This document shows positions 1-11,383 of a DNA stretch of 11,433 nt, piece after piece. Position 1 is the first letter of the stretch. Each line of letters starts with the position of its first letter. The stretch is taken from UHGV virus genome UHGV-0104572. One strand, written 5' to 3'. Below the pieces are notes generated by a model. The model was given only the letters and a program-made list of their open reading frames with translations. It searched no databases and was not told the DNA's origin. This DNA comes from a virus. The translations under genes were made by a program, and so were the position numbers.

Positions 1-49
1 CTTCTATTGCCAAGCATATAAATTACACTAGCGCTATAAGAGTGTGTTT

Positions 50-2068
50 TTACATTACTGTAATAATAAAATCCAAATCAACATTGGCACCTGTATTATT
101 AAATGTCTTAACCGTAATTGAATAGTCTGAATCCCTTGAGAAACTTGAATATCTACCAGATCCTCCAAACAATGTAATATTTGGAACGAGTGTTGAAACG
201 TTAAATGTAAAATCTATCTTATATGTTCCTGATGACAGTCTAGATACATTTGATATGTTCTGAGCTAATGAATAAGCACCTGTAGATGAAATATTTGCTC
301 TTGCAGATACCAACCCTTGGCTATTTCTCTGAACTTTTTCCAATCCAGAATATGGTGATTTCATTGAATTTTGGTTGCCAAAGTCTGTAAAAACAAGATG
401 GCTAACACCAAAAGATGAAGGGACGACAAATTGCACTTCTTTAAATGCAGATTCAGCAGAAGCACCAGTGTTAAGAAAACCATTTCCCATCATATTCAAA
501 TAACATTGAACACCAGAACTGAGATCTGATTGATTTGACTGTACTATAACTCTAGATGCGCTAACGGAATCTAAATTATAGTTAAATATTGAATTATTTA
601 TGTTAATAATTTGATTTAAGTTTCTGTTTATGTAAAAACTCACATCAGAACCAGTATTTGATTCGAAATAGCAATTATCAATTGTTGCTGCGACACGACC
701 TGCACCACCAATCAACGCAAACTGTACGCACGAATTAAATGCAATTGGGGTCCCGTTGGAATATGATTTCCCTCCATTTGCTTCAAACGTACAAGTGTCA
801 ATTTTCCAAGCGTGTGCGTGTTGGTTTTCGATACAAAATTCAGCATTGTACTGAAAATCACAGCGTGAAAGTCTTATTGAGTTTGGTCCTGACACTTCAC
901 CAAGTCTTCCTTGTATTGCTGTTTTGTTATAAGTAAATCTACAATTGTTAAACTCAAGATATAATGAATCTTTCAGTTTACACCCAATCTCAAAGCCATC
1001 TATCAGAACATTCCTCATTGAAAGCCTGATGCATTTGTTTATATTTAATCCAAATCCTGACCAGTCAGATCTATTGGCACTTGAATCTACAGATCTGATA
1101 GTGAGGTTTTCTATGGGGAATGATGAAAATACTGAAAGAGAGCCATCAAGATAAATCCCGAAATTATTCTGCGAAGTTTCTGAAGCTAGTATATTTACTA
1201 TTGATAACTTTTCGTCAACACCTCTTATATAAGCTACTTTTCCACCTTCTCTCTGGTGTATTGGTATTGATACTGGTGATTTTAAATTTATAATATTGCC
1301 TGGTAAAACGACCCCAAGCCCAAGAACTCCGGCGGCTGAAATGGCCTTCCTTAGATTTGGTGATAAGTCCAAGTTATCATCAGGATTTCCATGCATACCA
1401 TACATTTCACCTGTGATTTCTTTGATGTCTCTTCTAACCCAACAACCGTTTGATGATGGATGTTCATCTCCAACTCCGTTTACATAGTCTGATACATATG
1501 CATCTCCAATATATGGAACTGATGGTGATATTATACACCCTCCGTCATGCTTCGACCTTATTATGCTGTCATTAAACTCAAAAATACCACCACCACCACT
1601 TCCATCTCGATACCATGACTTTAGTAAAACCTTATCTCCATTATTAGATTCCATTCCATAAAAATCAGATACAGCACCCAACTCACCAACTAAATTAAAA
1701 CCACCTTTACTAGATAATTCCTCTCTTAATTGATCAGGGTCATACTTCAGCACATTCGGAAAATAGAACTGCTTAGCACCATATGCATCATAAACAGCCA
1801 TAGAATGGCCTTGCACGGTAACGAATTTGGCAATCTGTCCGTTATATACCGGATATCCAGCAGCGTTAATGATGATTGGTTGCGAAACAGGAACGTGAGA
1901 TCCGTCTTCGTTCTCCACATAAACCTGAATCTGGTTTTCAGGATTTACCGGGTCAGTGTCAATTTTACCGATATAAATTTTGCCATTGGCTACAGCTTTA
2001 AAAGAACGAGCCATAGTGAAGAGTTGCGAAGGCATGCTCACTACAACATTAGCTGTAATGTCTGTCAT
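50..2068 (-). CDS. Tailspike protein: P22/HK620-type N-terminal head-binding domain, divergent C-terminal receptor-binding domain
   Basis: 672-aa ORF. The first ~115 aa ([11 protein letters not shown]...[11 protein letters not shown]...NVLKYDPDQ) match the conserved P22 gp9 / HK620 tailspike head-binding domain as I recall it. The rest is G/N/S-rich with NxS/T repeats, typical of a beta-helix, but does not match the P22 or HK620 receptor domains I remember. GGAG lies 8 nt upstream of the ATG at 2068. Confidence 0.85.
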
Positions 2069-2126
2069 TTAATTTGCTCCAGATACAAGGAATCGCCGCA
2101 GCATGGCTACGGTGAATTTTGGGCAT

Positions 2127-2150
2127 AAAAAAACCCAGCCGAAGCTGGGT
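2127..2150 (-). terminator. Rho-independent terminator between ant and tailspike
   Basis: Plus strand has an A-run (2127-2133) followed by cccagc-cgaa-gctggg (2134-2149). On the minus-strand RNA this is a GC-rich hairpin followed by a 7-U run, 19 nt after the ant stop. Confidence 0.6.
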
Positions 2151-2168
2151 CGTTGCGTTGGTTATCTG

Positions 2169-3092
2169 TCAGTAGTTATGTACTGAAGGAGGTAATTCTT
2201 TATTCTTAAGTCTCATCCATGCGGAAAGATTCGTTGGTCCGTCTGGCTCATTAATATCAACATCTCGTGTGTGGTTTATTAAAACGTCTCTCGCCATTCC
2301 GATAACATACGAGAACTTATGACCGTAGTCGTAGCATCTGCCGGAATAGTTCGATTGAATTTGTTTTAGCGCCGGATACAGTTCGCGGAATAATGCCTGC
2401 GAACGGTTGGCATAATCCCATAACCATACAAGGCTGTTTGCTTCTTTTGCAGAAAGCTCGTTGGTTTTCTTCTCTTGTTTGCCAATGAACTCACCTTCAA
2501 GTGGAACTCGAGCTGCAAGTGATAGTGCTTCGGTAAACTGCTCCTCACTGATTTCTTTGTACGAACATCCAAAATGGGATTTTAGTGACGACCACATGGT
2601 GATCATCGCCTTAGCCTGTTTTTCTTTTGGCAGAGACTGACCGCGACTCATGACGAGTTGTTTAATGGCTTCCTGCTGTTCAGTGGTGATTTTACCCGGC
2701 AACGCTTTTTTAGCTTTGCGTGGGTTAACTACATGGCCTTTAGTCCAGTACTCGTATAGCACATCGTCACACTCTTCTTGATACTGGATTACATTGTCGC
2801 GGATTTCAGGGCGGACTTTGTTAGGGCTGATGGTTTGCAACCAGCCATTCAGTTTACGTAAAGCAAGGCAAATCATGGTCTGCACACCGCCAACTGAAGG
2901 TATTGCGATTTCCACAATTCCTTTAGCAAATCTTTGTTTTAACTTTGTAAACTGTGAAGCCCAATCCATACCCATTCCCTCAACGATAGGTTTCATTGGG
3001 GTGTACGGCTCACCGTTGTGATTGACAACATAAAGCTCTGCGCCGTGGAATGGTACATTGATAGTAGATACTGCTGTTGCTATACTTTTCAT
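2169..3092 (-). CDS. ant: Antirepressor Ant (P22 immI-type)
   Basis: 307-aa ORF directly downstream of arc on the same strand, the same order as P22 arc-ant-gene 9. The N-terminus (SIA..A..T..VPF.G.E...) resembles what I recall of P22 Ant and AntA-type antirepressor domains. AGGAA lies 8 nt before the ATG. Confidence 0.7.
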
Positions 3093-3161
3093 GTCGTTAA
3101 TTCCTATGCGTGGTTTTACGATATCGAAGCCCTGACTGTTCCCGCAGTTGGGGCTTCAACT

Positions 3162-3323
3162 TTACGCGCCAATGCGTCCTTCCTTCTTAAAACTTTCCAT
3201 TACTCTCTGATAAATCTCAGAGTTAACAGACCGACCATTCTCTTCCGCCACCTTGCGTACCAAATCCAATACTTCTTTAGGCCACCGCAAATTGAACTGC
3301 GGCATTTTGCTCATTCCTTTCAT
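3162..3323 (-). CDS. arc: Arc repressor (ribbon-helix-helix)
   Basis: Translation from the internal Met gives MKGMSKMPQFNLRWPKEVLDLVRKVAEENGRSVNSEIYQRVMESFKKEGRIGA, 53 aa, essentially identical to P22 Arc with one K/R difference by my recall. The longer 74-aa ORF in the track is an upstream extension running through the operator region. Confidence 0.9.
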   Translation of the reverse strand: MKGMSKMPQFNLRWPKEVLDLVRKVAEENGRSVNSEIYQRVMESFKKEGRIGA

Positions 3324-3339
3324 ATTCACCTCACAATAT

Positions 3340-3356
3340 GGGTCCACGGTGGACCT
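3340..3356. promoter_or_regulatory. Omnt operator (Mnt binding site)
   Basis: Palindrome gGGTCCACGGTGGACCt, matching the 17-bp P22 mnt operator AGGTCCACGGTGGACCT except at the first base. It sits at the predicted Pant start site. Confidence 0.8.
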
Positions 3357-3390
3357 GTTGAGAATGTAGTAGAGTGCTTCTATCATGTCA
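3357..3390. promoter_or_regulatory. Divergent Pant / Pmnt promoter region
   Basis: Minus strand (Pant): -35 TTGACA (plus 3385-3390), 17-bp spacer, -10 TACATT (plus 3362-3367), start site inside Omnt. Plus strand (Pmnt candidate): -35 TTGAGA (3357-3362) and -10 TATCAT (3381-3386), 18-bp spacer. Pmnt placement is less certain. Confidence 0.65.
3366..3386. promoter_or_regulatory. Oarc operator (Arc binding site)
   Basis: Reverse complement reads ATGATAGAAGCACTCTACTAc, matching the P22 arc operator ATGATAGAAGCACTCTACTAT with one end mismatch. It lies between the -35 and -10 of Pant. Confidence 0.75.
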
Positions 3391-3413
3391 ATACACTAAC
3401 TTGGAGTGATGGC

Positions 3414-3668
3414 ATGGCTAGAGATGATCCGCACTTTAACTTCCGCATGCCTTTGGAAGTAAGAGAAAAATTAAAATACAGAGCAGAGTCAAATGGTAGA
3501 TCAATGAACTCAGAATTGTTGCAAATCGTCCAAGATGCTCTATCGAGACCATCTCCTGTAAAAGGTTATCGCAATGAAGCTGAACGATTAGCCGAGATGC
3601 AGGCTGAACAGTTCAAGTCTGTGGTATTTGAGACACTTAAAAACATGTATGGCAAGGATGCAAAATGA
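3414..3668 (+). CDS. mnt: Mnt repressor (maintenance of lysogeny; represses Pant)
   Basis: MARDDPHFNFRMPLEVREKLKYRAESNGRSMNSELLQIVQDALS..., 84 aa, closely matches P22 Mnt as recalled. GGAG lies 7 nt upstream of the ATG. The 216-aa ORF in the track is an unsupported N-terminal extension. Confidence 0.9.
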   Translation: MARDDPHFNFRMPLEVREKLKYRAESNGRSMNSELLQIVQDALSRPSPVKGYRNEAERLAEMQAEQFKSVVFETLKNMYGKDAK

Positions 3669-4246
3669 TCGATTACAACCCAGCAAAAAAAGAAATCATC
3701 GCAGCTAAAAAGTGCCTAGAGCAGATGAAATCATCTACAAACCATGATGATTTTGAAATGCACTGGCGAGAATGTCTTGGGCATATAGAAAAGTCTTTCA
3801 GTAAGTTGCTCTGTGCAACAAAGCCGGTTAGTGGAAAATTTAGCAGCCACTTCAACCAAAAGTTCATGCTTAGAAAAACAGACAAAACACTTGCTTACCT
3901 TCACCAAGCAAGAAATGCTGATCATCATTCCACTATGGAAATCTCAAAACTTGAACCTCCTTATACTACTCTTGGGGCATTTCCGGGAGCAAGAAGCCAT
4001 TATATTAAAGAGTTAATCATTGATTCAACAGGGAAAATAGCAAAATACGAAGGCGACCCTATGATAGTTGAGTTTCATCCAGCAACAACTATGCCTATAA
4101 CCGTAAGAAACCAAGGCAAAGATTATCCACCTCCAACAGAACATCTTGGCGAAAAGCTTGTTGATATACATCCATCTGTTCTTGCCTATCTCGGTATACA
4201 ATTTTATGAAAAATGGATAGATGAGTCGTGTGCAACGTTTAGATAG
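3665..4246 (+). CDS. Hypothetical protein (193 aa), translationally coupled to mnt
   Basis: The ATG overlaps the mnt stop (ATGA). It is a long clean ORF with no transmembrane segment and no motif I recognise. It occupies the mnt-to-sieA interval of a P22-like immI region. Confidence 0.6.
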   Translation: MIDYNPAKKEIIAAKKCLEQMKSSTNHDDFEMHWRECLGHIEKSFSKLLCATKPVSGKFSSHFNQKFMLRKTDKTLAYLHQARNADHHSTMEISKLEPPYTTLGAFPGARSHYIKELIIDSTGKIAKYEGDPMIVEFHPATTMPITVRNQGKDYPPPTEHLGEKLVDIHPSVLAYLGIQFYEKWIDESCATFR

Positions 4247-4463
4247 TTATTTTTGATAATTTCAAGTATTTCCTCTTGACTTTGATTTACCCAAACGTGA
4301 TCACACTCATGAAACCAGATTATGCTTCCTGTTTCGCCTTGTGCAATATAGGTGATCATGTTTTCATTAACAATTATTACTGAGTTATCATGTGCGCAAT
4401 TTAGTTTTATCAATTCGCATATCCTATCGTGACAAAGTAACTAGAAAAACTAAAGAGGTTGGT

Positions 4464-4958
4464 GTGTCTGATTCTATGAGTTACGCTGTGCTAGTTGCCG
4501 CAACTCTATTTATGGGGATAGGGTTGCAGATTGCGTGGTTCTTTTTTTCTAGTTTTATTAAACGCAAAAGAATTGAATCAAGGATATCTGAGATTTCTAT
4601 TGCTATAGGGAAAAATGCTGAAAATCCAGAGAATGAGGCCTGCGCACTGAATTACCTTAAAGAAAAGTTTTCCCCTGAAAAATTTGAAAATAGAATTACT
4701 GATGCTCTTGGATTGGTAATATCAGTAATTCATATGCCACTAAGTTTGCTGATAACAGTGTGGTACTTCGCCATGATCGCCGGAAGAATATTTGGTTTCA
4801 TGAATATAGAGCCTGTAGTTCTTTGGGTTCCAATGATACTGCAACTGTTGTTAAGCGTTGCTATCTTTATTTTTTCTGTTTTTATAAAAATTGTCTTTGG
4901 AAGATACCCCGGAGAAGCTAAGGGATTTAATAAAGAATTCATAAAAACTATAAAATAA
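4464..4958 (+). CDS. Inner-membrane protein, SieA-like superinfection exclusion candidate (by position)
   Basis: Four hydrophobic helices ([21 protein letters not shown]; [21 protein letters not shown]; two more near the C-terminus). Start is either GTG 4464 (GAGG 5 nt upstream) or ATG 4476. Synteny mnt > orf > membrane protein, convergent with the gp16-like gene, matches the P22 sieA position. I cannot recall the SieA sequence to confirm. Confidence 0.55.
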
Positions 4959-4980
4959 ATGCCGTCCTTGGCTTACAGTG

Positions 4981-6198
4981 CTACTGCCGGGTCGCTTCGT
5001 TAGCTAAGAGCGGGCGCACGGCAGTAGCAGCCTGATTTAGCGCTCTTTCATAAGCTGGCGTTCCAGCTTTAGTGTTTGCCAGACGTAAGAGCGCATTCCT
5101 TGCTGCTTTGGACTCATACAAACGCATCATTGCACCAAAACCAGCCTCAAGCCCCATTGATACTCCAAGAGTCGCAGTTGCGCCAATCGTCCTTATCCTG
5201 TTGGCTTGTGATTGCCCCGTCTGAGTTACTACATTTGCGGTGTCTGACCTTGCTGTTTGCTGTAGAACTTCATGAAGAGCATCGAGCTCTTTCATGTGCT
5301 TTCCAGAAAAAATAGTGTTGTAAATTTCACCGCCTGACTGAGATTTAAGCTTATTAACTTCAGTGATGAACTTGGCTGGAGAGTCACCGGCCTTTTCCGC
5401 TATTTTGCTGACGTAAGCTGCACGCATAGCATCTTTCCCTTTATCATCCAATGCGCTCCAGATTCGTTTCACGTCAGATGGTTTTCTGCTTAATACAACG
5501 GTATTTATAAGTTCAGGACTGGCTTCACTGCTTGCCTTGTTGAGCTTGTTAGCAATGTTTTTATTAAGCACCTTATTATAAACGTTTGCATAATCTGAAT
5601 TTGCTTTAAGGTATTTTGCTGCGTCTGATGCACCGAGGTTTTTAGCAACTGCGTTACGAAGGTCTTTTGACATTGCATTCTCTACCATATTGGTAGCTGC
5701 TTTTGCCTGGTTGGGGAAGACCATAGCATCTCCCTGAACATTAGATCTAAATGCTGTTCTGTGCTGACGCAAGAGATCAAACGTAACATCCAAATCAGTT
5801 GCAGGGTTTGCTAATTCTTCGCGTAGGTTACGCAAGGATGTAAGCAGGCTTTGATTGGCAGACGTCCCAAGCCGTTCCTGTCTTGCGATCGCTGTATTCA
5901 GAGCATTCATAGTGTTTGTGGTATCAACTGCGGCATTCCCCATTTTATTGGTGACGTCATTGATAACAGCGCCAGCGGCATCCTTCCGTCCCCTTAACGT
6001 GGTGGTCAGAGATTTCACCACATCATCCGGGTTGTACTCACCAAAACGGTCAAAATAATTACTTACCAACTTACTACGCGTTGCATATTGCTCCGCTCGC
6101 TTTGAGCCTGTCCCGAGCAAAGCCCCCTCGGCATTCGGGATGGCTGCATTTTGCGGTAAGCACGAACTCAGCCAGAACGACAAACAAAAGGCTATCAA
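4981..6198 (-). pseudogene. DNA ejection protein gp16-like, N-terminally truncated remnant
   Basis: 405-aa Ala/Asn/Lys-rich ORF on the same strand as the tailspike, immediately distal to the sieA-like gene, which is the position of gene 16 in P22. The first ~20 codons are antisense to the Q fragment, so the homologous part probably starts near 6130. Identification is by synteny and composition only. Confidence 0.4.
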
Positions 6199-6475
6199 CT
6201 ATCTGATGCAATTTGCACACAAGGTATCGGGGAAATACCGTGGTGTGGCAAAGCTCGAAGGAAATACTAAGGCAAAGGTACTGCAAGTGCTCGCAATATT
6301 CGCTTATGAGGATTATTGCCGTAGTGCCGCGACGCCGGGTGCAAGATGCAGAGATTGCCACGGTACAGGCCGTGCGGTTGATATAGCCAAAACGGAGCAG
6401 TGGGGGAGAGTTGTTGAGAAAGAGTGCGGAAGATGCAAAGGTGTCGGCTATTCAAGAATGCCAGCAATCAGCTAA
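6131..6475 (+). pseudogene. Q: Antiterminator Q (lambda-type), internal fragment
   Basis: [51 protein letters not shown]...CRDCHGTGRAVDIAKTEQWGRVVEKECGRCKGVGYSRMPA matches the central part of lambda Q as recalled. The N-terminal ~50 aa and the C-terminal part are missing, and the strand is inverted relative to what a collinear prophage would have. Confidence 0.8.
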
Positions 6476-9538: not shown

Positions 9539-10236
9539 ACCCAGCCAGCAAACTTGCTTATCTAGTTCCGCGCGACGGCATGGTTTGCCTTGATATCAGT
9601 TATATGGGATTGCTCCATATTGCAATGGAGTCTGGTGTTATCTCATGGGGTCAGGCAAAACTTGTTCATGCTAACGATACCTATGAGTCAAACGGGCTTG
9701 ATAAAGCACCAACCCATAAATACAACGCCTTCGGTGATCGTGGTGATATCGTTGGCGTTTACTGCACAGTTAAGACGCCAGCAGGTGATTATCTAACGGA
9801 AGAGATGAGTCTGGCTGAAATTGAGGCTGTAAGGAAAACAAGCAAGGCGGCATTCAGCGATAAAGGACCATGGGTAAATCACTGGAATGAGATGGCGCGA
9901 AAGACGGTCGTAAAGCGTGCAAGCAAGTATTGGCCTAAGGCATCACGTCTTGATAGTGCTATTCACGTACTAAACGAAGAAGAAGGTGTATGGACTGAAC
10001 CAGTTATGCCGTACAAATCAGAGGAAGATATCCGCGAAGATGAACGGAAACGCCAGCAGGAAATAACGGATAAAGCACAACTTCTTTGTGATGAAATGGC
10101 TCAGGCAGAAAACATGGATGATTTGAAGCGATATTTTGCAGAAGCATATCGCCTGACATCTGGAATGAAATTGCAGCATAACGTACAAGCCATTTACATA
10201 GAATGCAAAGCGAAACTGGAGGTTGCCAGTGAGTAA
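9448..10236 (+). pseudogene. recT: RecT-family recombinase, 5'-truncated remnant
   Basis: The frame is open from 9448. CAIINVAAIGITLNPASKLAYLVPRDG aligns with E. coli RecT SAIVQCSQLGLEPGSALGHAYLLPFG, and KGPWVNHWNEMARKTVVKRASKYWPKA with NGPWVTHWEEMAKKTAIRRLFKYLPVS. The N-terminal part is absent and there is no start codon or RBS for the homologous region. Confidence 0.65.
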
Positions 10237-10774: not shown

Positions 10775-11383
10775 CGGCGACAAGGCCATATAACAACAAA
10801 CCCTGTCGCTGCCACTCGCGCAGCAAAATCAGAGGTAAGGAGATCAAGACTTACGGCTGACGAATACCTGAAAATTTATCAAGCAGCAGAATCATCACCA
10901 TGTTGGCTCAGACTTGCAATGGAACTGGCTGTTGTTACCGGGCAGCGAGTTGGTGATTTATGCGAAATGAAGTGGTCTGATATCGTAGATGGATATCTTT
11001 ATGTCGAGCAAAGCAAAACAGGCGTAAAAATTGCCATCCCAACAACATTGCATGTTGATGCTCTCGGGATATCAATGAAGGAAACACTTGATAAATGCAA
11101 AGAGATTCTTGGCGGAGAAACCATAATTGCATCTACTCGTCGTGAACCGCTTTCATCCGGCACAGTATCAAGGTATTTTATGCGCGCACGAAAAGCATCA
11201 GGTCTTTCCTTCGAAGGGGATCCGCCTACCTTTCACGAGTTGCGCAGTTTGTCTGCAAGACTCTATGAGAAGCAGATAAGCGATAAGTTTGCTCAACATC
11301 TTCTCGGGCATAAGTCGGACACCATGGCATCACAGTATCGTGATGACAGAGGCAGGGAGTGGGACAAAATTGAAATCAAATAA
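10775..11383 (+). pseudogene. int: Integrase (lambda Int-type) remnant, C-terminal catalytic domain only
   Basis: From ~10784 the frame reads GHITTNPVAATRAAKSEVRRSRLTADEYLKIYQAAESSPCWLRLAMELAVVTGQRVGDL...HLLGHKSDTMASQYRDDRGREWDKIEIK, about 98% identical to lambda Int from residue ~168 to the end, including the catalytic Tyr in SQYRDD. An in-frame TAG at 10772 and unrelated upstream sequence replace the arm-binding and core-binding domains. Confidence 0.9.

Follow-up and report, generated by a model that had tools for sequence, protein, structure and literature searches.

The stretch of DNA analyzed here (the window, 11,433 nucleotides) is almost all of a roughly 11.9-kb E. coli prophage remnant at the lambda attachment site, with a tailspike gene at the attR end. 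L014, a scaffold from a metagenome, contains the full 11,433 bases of the window at 100% identity. Within this scaffold the element occupies positions 598-12500, with ybhC on one side and ybhB-bioABFCD-uvrB on the other, and a copy of the lambda att core (GCTTTTTTATACTAA) flanks it on each side. A location at argW, as in strains S10 and 81, was assumed at first, and was ruled out by an exact-protein look-up that placed the remnant at the lambda attachment site. The same tailspike is found at a different site, argW/intS, in the intact prophages of S10. The remnant reads, in order, integrase fragment, Gp157, RecT fragment, KilA-N, lambda-type cI, cro, cII, Q fragment, gp16 fragment, sieA, a 193-aa ORF, mnt, arc, ant, and tailspike, and thus combines a lambda-type integrase fragment and lambda cI/cro/cII immunity with P22-type virion and immI genes. 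The features surrounding the tailspike gene are as follows.

10919-11383, plus strand: integrase, catalytic C-terminal part only, 154 aa, truncated
9580-10236, plus strand: RecT, beginning at profile position 60, truncated
6140-6475, plus strand, opposite the late genes: 111-aa ORF with an antitermination-Q domain (PF03589, first half only)
4981..6134, minus strand: gp16 ejection protein, C-terminal fragment, with the deletion junction at 6129-6134; full-length in L013 and L015
3665-4246, plus strand: 193-aa ORF between mnt and sieA, no Pfam or PADLOC match
3162..3668: the immI regulators arc (minus strand, PF03869) and mnt (plus strand, 3420-3668, PF11423)
2169..3092, minus strand: antirepressor Ant (PF10547, PF10548), the upstream neighbor of the tailspike as in P22 immI
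2132..2151, minus strand: terminator-like hairpin GACCCAGC-TTCG-GCTGGGTT followed by T7, from a pattern scan, between the ant stop and the tailspike ATG

The first-pass annotation of this DNA had described a gutted prophage, and this description is accurate. Integrase, RecT, Q, and gp16 are present as fragments of their genes. Because the recombination and integration genes are truncated, the remnant should be unable to excise by itself. A less deleted relative at the same locus, L013, carries a 275-aa gene on the strand of the Q-domain ORF, opposite the late genes, and an inversion therefore seems to have preceded the deletions. All the related prophages examined (L002-L004, L013-L015, and strain 81) have the 193-aa ORF in the same position, and its location beside sieA suggests a role in superinfection exclusion or defense. 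PADLOC returned no match for SieA or for the tailspike either.

The gene order around the tailspike, gp16 - sieA - mnt/arc/ant (immI) - terminator - tailspike adjoining the attachment site, is that found at the end of the virion gene block in the P22 family. S10 and L002-L004 have the same order, and there the virion genes are complete. The tailspike gene itself is intact, as had been claimed, and can be divided into the following elements.

50..2068, minus strand: tailspike gene (gene 9 / gp14 equivalent), 672 aa plus stop, ATG start, intact (ORF list, Pfam)
1730..2068, minus strand: head-binding (particle-docking) domain, residues 1-113 (PF09008; identity to HK620, Sf6, and P22)
1694..1729, minus strand: hinge and recombination junction, residues 114-125 (BLASTP against HK620, megablast edges, G+C step)
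1364..1693, minus strand: tentative neck-like sub-module, residues about 126-235 (motif WY..GGGxFxF), poorly modeled
1322..1363, minus strand: predicted alpha-helix, residues 236-249, that caps the beta-helix at its N-terminal end (model helix H121-134)
398..1321, minus strand: right-handed parallel beta-helix, residues about 250-557, the predicted polysaccharide-binding/cleaving body
782..784, minus strand: candidate catalytic Glu429 (domain E314) in the CTFEANGGK rung, invariant in 18 relatives
662..664, minus strand: candidate catalytic Glu469 (domain E354) in the CYFESN rung, invariant, one rung after Glu429
53..397, minus strand: C-terminal beta-sandwich, residues about 558-672 (model strands, pLDDT about 90)

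Residues 1-113 match the whole profile of the Head_binding family PF09008 with an E value of 1.2e-66 in Pfam. The closest named relative of this adaptor is the HK620 tailspike gp9, an E. coli O18A1-specific endo-N-acetylglucosaminidase, which is identical at 115 of 129 aligned positions by BLASTP and differs at only four positions inside residues 1-113 (about 96% identity). HK620 gp9 also shares its position downstream of an immI remnant and a terminator, tANT, which lies at the same relative place as the hairpin in the window, as well as the overall plan of adaptor, beta-helix, and C-terminal domain. Over the first 118 or so residues, Sf6 is 87-89% identical (89% for the gp14 structure, residues 1-118) and P22 is 74.4% identical, and E. 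coli P22-like phages in our phage collection reach at most 96.6% over the first 118. Sf6 gp14 is likewise the best match of the tailspike in the PDB, followed by P22 constructs. The adaptor had been called nearly identical to those of P22 and HK620. This description holds for HK620 and the Sf6 type but is overstated for P22, which at the adaptor is the most distant of the phages that were named.

The likeness to HK620 gp9 ends abruptly at DPDQ|LREEL, at about residue 114, and beyond this hinge BLASTP finds no significant match to HK620 gp9 (E ≥ 0.47). Matches in the PDB, including the P22, Sf6, and HK620 tailspikes, stop at tailspike residues 118-126, with the exception of WceF (6tgf), whose match reaches residue 181. 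The receptor part is thus unlike the P22 and HK620 receptor domains, as had been recognized, and the Sf6 receptor is unrelated as well. Sf6 gp14 and P22 gp9 have beta-helix receptors of the same fold class, but their receptor domains are unrelated to this one in sequence, and a different specificity is therefore expected.

The same boundary can be seen at the level of DNA. Parts of the window are matched by 3133 of 5426 complete E. coli genomes in megablast, and among the best matches listed the alignments begin at window positions 1712-1752, the domain junction. When window positions 1-1730 were searched by sensitive blastn, a single genome of the 5426 matched, that of strain S10. The G+C content is 41.7% in the adaptor but only 35.6% in the remainder of the tailspike gene (43.6% in the rest of the window), and GC3 drops likewise from 38% to 24%. 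Furthermore, the allele in the window, at the lambda site, can be compared with the argW allele found in L002 and L004. In the adaptor 18 of 115 codons differ, 16 of them synonymously, whereas in the receptor part 16 of 557 codons differ. The receptor module is therefore younger than the adaptor in these backbones. This is the pattern that a recent exchange of cassettes at the hinge would give, and the receptor cassette evidently passed from one backbone to another not long ago.

Shuffling of adaptors and receptor domains is textbook behavior for P22-like phages. The domain swap proposed in the first-pass annotation is borne out by the abrupt end of similarity, by the drop in G+C content, and by relatives of the receptor module on four other adaptor types, as described below. 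That the swap changed specificity, and that the swapped domain is an enzyme, we infer.

Residues 116-672 match no family in the local Pfam and none in NCBIfam, which gave no match for the tailspike as a whole, and return only weak tail-protein PHROGs. In precomputed matches to PF27114 (Phage_tail_beta), which carry no score, the tailspike is marked 'weak' and its relative P0006 is unmarked. An AlphaFold2 model of the receptor domain, built with 12 sequences in the alignment, has a pLDDT of 77 overall and of 80-95 from about residue 215 of the full-length protein onward. The model shows an alpha-helical cap, a long series of short strands, and a C-terminal beta-sandwich, the last of which is kept in all relatives. 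In P22-family tailspikes the receptor domain folds as a right-handed parallel beta-helix and leads into a C-terminal domain, and both are present in the prediction. Structural neighbors of the model include the RbmB lyase, CBA120 TSP2, Det7, Klebsiella and Acinetobacter depolymerases, AlgE4, and polygalacturonases. These neighbors, none of which is more than 16% identical to the receptor domain among the solved structures matched by fold, span lyases, epimerases, adhesins, and hydrolases. The beta-helix fold is a firm prediction of the model, while the fold comparison does not decide between a hydrolase and a lyase.

In an alignment of 18 relatives, extending down to 24% identity, Glu429 and Glu469 are the only invariant acidic residues. 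Both are located in a ladder of repeated motifs, RCDFQYN / CTFEANGGK / CYFESNTG / SIFNYN, where they share the same outward-facing position on consecutive rungs, and the Cys, Phe, and Asn positions of the ladder are the usual inward stacks. Glu429 and Glu469 are therefore our candidate catalytic pair, as judged from their conservation and placement. Invariant glutamates in a repeated structural motif could have a structural role instead.

The roughly 110 residues directly past the hinge are different in character. Their pLDDT is 35-57, and this stretch is the sole part of the domain covered by many of the weaker matches to cluster representatives. It is also shared with several phage tail-fiber families in the PHROG and phage matches. 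The stretch aligns to residues 158-220 of Pantoea stewartii WceF, although with an E value of 0.3 when tested alone and in a low-confidence part of the model. In WceF these residues form a neck domain, a Greek-key insert that is present in CBA120 tailspikes too (PMC7949094). We tentatively read the first 110 or so residues after the hinge, which recur in many otherwise unrelated tailspikes, as a probable neck module. WceF differs from the tailspike in being a secreted bacterial enzyme that acts on stewartan, and its beta-helix is only about 10% identical, but it has an alpha-helical cap analogous to the one predicted here.

We then considered how widely the receptor module is distributed. When 1.84 billion cluster representatives were searched exhaustively with HMMER, 367 matched at E ≤ 1e-3, and only 16 of these had E ≤ 1e-30. 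A word-indexed search yielded a single 99% cluster, whose 71 member sequences are from E. coli, together with ten relatives that are 48-63% identical. These relatives (P0002-P0011), from metagenomic or SRA-assembled phages, resemble the tailspike over the full-length receptor domain, including the ladder motifs and the C-terminal domain, but carry adaptors of other types. Four such types are represented:

P0006: divergent P22-like podovirus, divergent head-binding domain
P0002: Kagunavirus-like siphovirus, Kagunavirus-like N-terminus
P0003: T7-like podovirus, T7 tail-fiber N-terminus plus Tail_spike_N
P0007: T1-like siphovirus context

Horizontal exchange of receptor domains across phage genera has been described for E. 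coli tailspikes (PMC10408124), and the distribution of this module over adaptors is, so far as sequence can tell, that same cross-genus exchange.

The module is rare. No relative of the receptor domain turned up when bacteria were scanned with one genome for each species, and all E. coli phage matches cover only 15-16% of the domain. IMG/VR holds two loci, a metagenome contig nearly identical to window positions 50-6134 and a second locus that differs from the window at the same places as S10. Among deposited phage genomes, the closest match is to a Hafnia phage, Pocitis76 (OL512804.1), whose tailspike is 33% identical across 81% of the domain (E 7e-56). A close match to a characterized tailspike, which would contradict the first-pass description of an unrecognized receptor-binding domain, was looked for. 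No characterized tailspike matches the receptor domain at high identity, the highest values being the 33% of Pocitis76 and the at most 16% of solved structures. Tailspikes have been assigned to the same subtype at ≥30% identity over ≥60% coverage (PMC10408124). At this threshold there is no match to a receptor-binding protein of established serogroup, and among deposited phage proteins Pocitis76 alone passes. Pocitis76 thus shares the receptor subtype but has another host genus and another adaptor, and because no specificity is on record for that phage it transfers no function. Taken together, the gene is a genuine P22-family (Lederbergvirus-type) tailspike in which an HK620/Sf6-type adaptor is joined to a rare, uncharacterized beta-helix receptor domain.

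S10, the only complete E. coli genome with the module, carries it in an intact P22-like prophage adjoining tRNA-Arg and intS, and the module is found in P22-like prophages at tRNA-Arg/intS in other assemblies as well. The O-antigen cluster of S10 contains rfbBDAC and a wzy named 'O105 family O-antigen polymerase' by PGAP (L005 46246-47274). NCBIfam has no HMM match for this Wzy, so that the O105 label is the PGAP product name alone. In Lederbergvirus prophages the tailspike usually matches the O-serogroup of the host, with a strong correlation (PMC10408124), and the O105 O-antigen is therefore a weak candidate for the target of the receptor module. With one genome and one product name behind it, we put this assignment forward only tentatively. 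The O105-family wzy of S10 is present in 11 of 5426 complete genomes, and the module is about as rare as the O105 serogroup, which is weakly consistent with an O105 target. The ten other genomes with this wzy are without the receptor module, which is compatible with sporadic carriage of the prophage but lends no support. The literature searched describes no O105 tailspike and gives no serotype for the accessions of the lineage that carries the window. Hafnia appears twice in these comparisons: outside E. coli, the O105-family Wzy has its nearest relative there (46% identity), and the nearest phage receptor domain (33%) belongs to a Hafnia phage. It is possible that this parallel is a sign of an O-antigen type common to both genera. 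The module may represent an uncharacterized depolymerase specificity, for O105 or a structurally related Hafnia-type O-antigen, that circulates as a cassette in at least five phage architectures, although we would lean against this full statement as it stands.

By analogy with characterized tailspikes, the receptor module most likely depolymerizes O-antigen. A capsule or an exopolysaccharide (K-antigen, colanic acid, or the like) would be another conceivable target, since P22-family adaptors are also found on tailspikes annotated as colanidase or colanic-acid degrading, and the structural neighbors of the model include many Klebsiella and Acinetobacter phage capsule depolymerases together with the exopolysaccharide enzymes RbmB and WceF, the latter matching in sequence past the head domain. 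However, the characterized temperate E. coli and Shigella comparators in the P22 family, HK620 and Sf6, use O-antigen, and the correlation of prophage tailspike with host O-serogroup in Lederbergvirus is strong (PMC10408124). A module found in one of 5426 genomes also suits a rare O-type better than a common exopolysaccharide such as colanic acid, and the two Hafnia matches, to a phage tailspike and to a Wzy, favor O-antigen. We therefore consider a capsule or exopolysaccharide target unlikely. The chemistry of the reaction raises a related question, as the beta-helix might belong to a polysaccharide lyase or to a non-cleaving binder rather than to a glycoside hydrolase. The lyases and adhesins among the structural neighbors would accommodate either, but the hydrolase tailspikes CBA120 TSP2, Det7, HK620, and Sf6 score about equally in the fold comparison. 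Moreover, what is kept down to 24% identity is the pair of glutamates, and no Lys/Arg/His/Tyr base or Ca-site pattern is evident. Polysaccharide lyases require uronic-acid substrates, and to our knowledge uronic acid is not indicated for the candidate target, which we count against a lyase. A lyase or a mere binder is, on balance, improbable.

The remnant is one of several stages of decay at the same locus. In the less deleted L013 and L015, gp16 is complete and a lysis-gp20 fusion is present, and the window corresponds to L013 minus about 4.6 kb, with a 6-bp overlap (microhomology) at the junction 6129-6134. In the more deleted L018 and L020 the cII region is joined straight to a 567-aa tailspike without the head-binding domain, and in L019 (CP055918.1) an IS element takes the place of mnt-arc-ant and the 5' end of the tailspike gene. 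Between these stages the DNA is 100% identical. The intact tailspike of the window is therefore one stage of recent, stepwise erosion and is not evidence of retained function.

The tailspike of the remnant is also poorly placed for expression. A strong terminator-like hairpin lies directly upstream, the late promoter region is gone, and only the Q fragment is left, on the opposite strand. In P22, Mnt and Arc repress Pant, and both are intact in the remnant. Because the gene sits behind the terminator, the late promoter and a complete Q are missing, and Mnt and Arc are intact, the tailspike is probably not transcribed and would almost certainly be a silent passenger rather than a working gene.

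These observations bear on whether the host might retain the tailspike for its usefulness, either as a WceF-like enzyme of glycan remodeling or as a defense that destroys phage receptors. WceF is an example of bacteria domesticating such proteins, the exact tailspike protein is recorded at the same locus on at least 93 E. coli contigs (175 index blocks), and a second, independently gutted prophage, in strain 81 at argW, has kept a tailspike of its own. Nevertheless, the truncated copies in sister strains, produced by deletion or IS insertion, lack the head-binding domain at this very locus, and the identity of the remnants means that their decay is too recent for intactness to show selection; we rejected selection as an explanation of the intact gene for these reasons. 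The barriers to expression listed above argue in the same direction. The alleles differ by 7 non-synonymous and 9 synonymous changes, numbers too small to speak for constraint, and because the tailspike is furthest from the deleted center its survival is expected by position. Nothing suggests that the host maintains the tailspike of the remnant, and we regard its retention for use as very improbable.

We consider it highly likely that the gene is a modular P22-family tailspike with a rare receptor subtype, carried as a silent passenger in a prophage remnant. In such a tailspike, residues 1-113 would dock the spike on the tail hub as a conserved adaptor, and a short hinge would lead into a probable neck module, the right-handed beta-helix, and the C-terminal beta-sandwich. 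By analogy with P22, Sf6, and HK620, the protein would form a trimer that binds a polysaccharide of the host surface, most likely O-antigen, with the O-antigen of O105 or a related one as the candidate. The polysaccharide would probably be cut by endoglycosidase action involving the outward-facing Glu429 and Glu469 on adjacent rungs. The rare receptor subtype was probably brought in through recombination at the hinge, and the remnant copy could pass to an incoming P22-like phage through the homologous flank formed by ant and the head-binding domain. The first-pass annotation had proposed that the intact gene may be a source of a new specificity. This is reasonable where it refers to recombination in the conserved ant/head-binding flank, but the intactness of the gene carries no functional weight.

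Receptor domains of tailspikes decide which serotypes can be infected, and they are used as typing reagents, as anti-virulence enzymes, and as parts for engineered phages and tailocins. Once determined, the target of this module would add one more specificity to this toolbox, possibly that of O105, for which the literature searched contains no phage enzyme. If the specificity is indeed of the O105 type, the remnant copy would provide, ready to hand, an O105-specific enzyme or typing reagent. Conceptually the tailspike is nothing new, being a modular P22-family protein of a well-known kind, and the succession of deletion stages at the lambda attachment site neatly shows how a prophage erodes step by step, but goes no further than that.

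Finally, the second gutted P22-like prophage mentioned above (E. coli strain 81, NZ_CP088131.1, positions 1000-20200 of L008) is located at argW-dsdC. It has intS, an acyltransferase, a tailspike whose receptor domain is a different one, a sieA interrupted by ISSen4, a fragment of gp16, and a cI with a frameshift. The gp16 fragment extends 144 nt further than that of the window, and the deletion is therefore a separate event that reached nearly the same end point.
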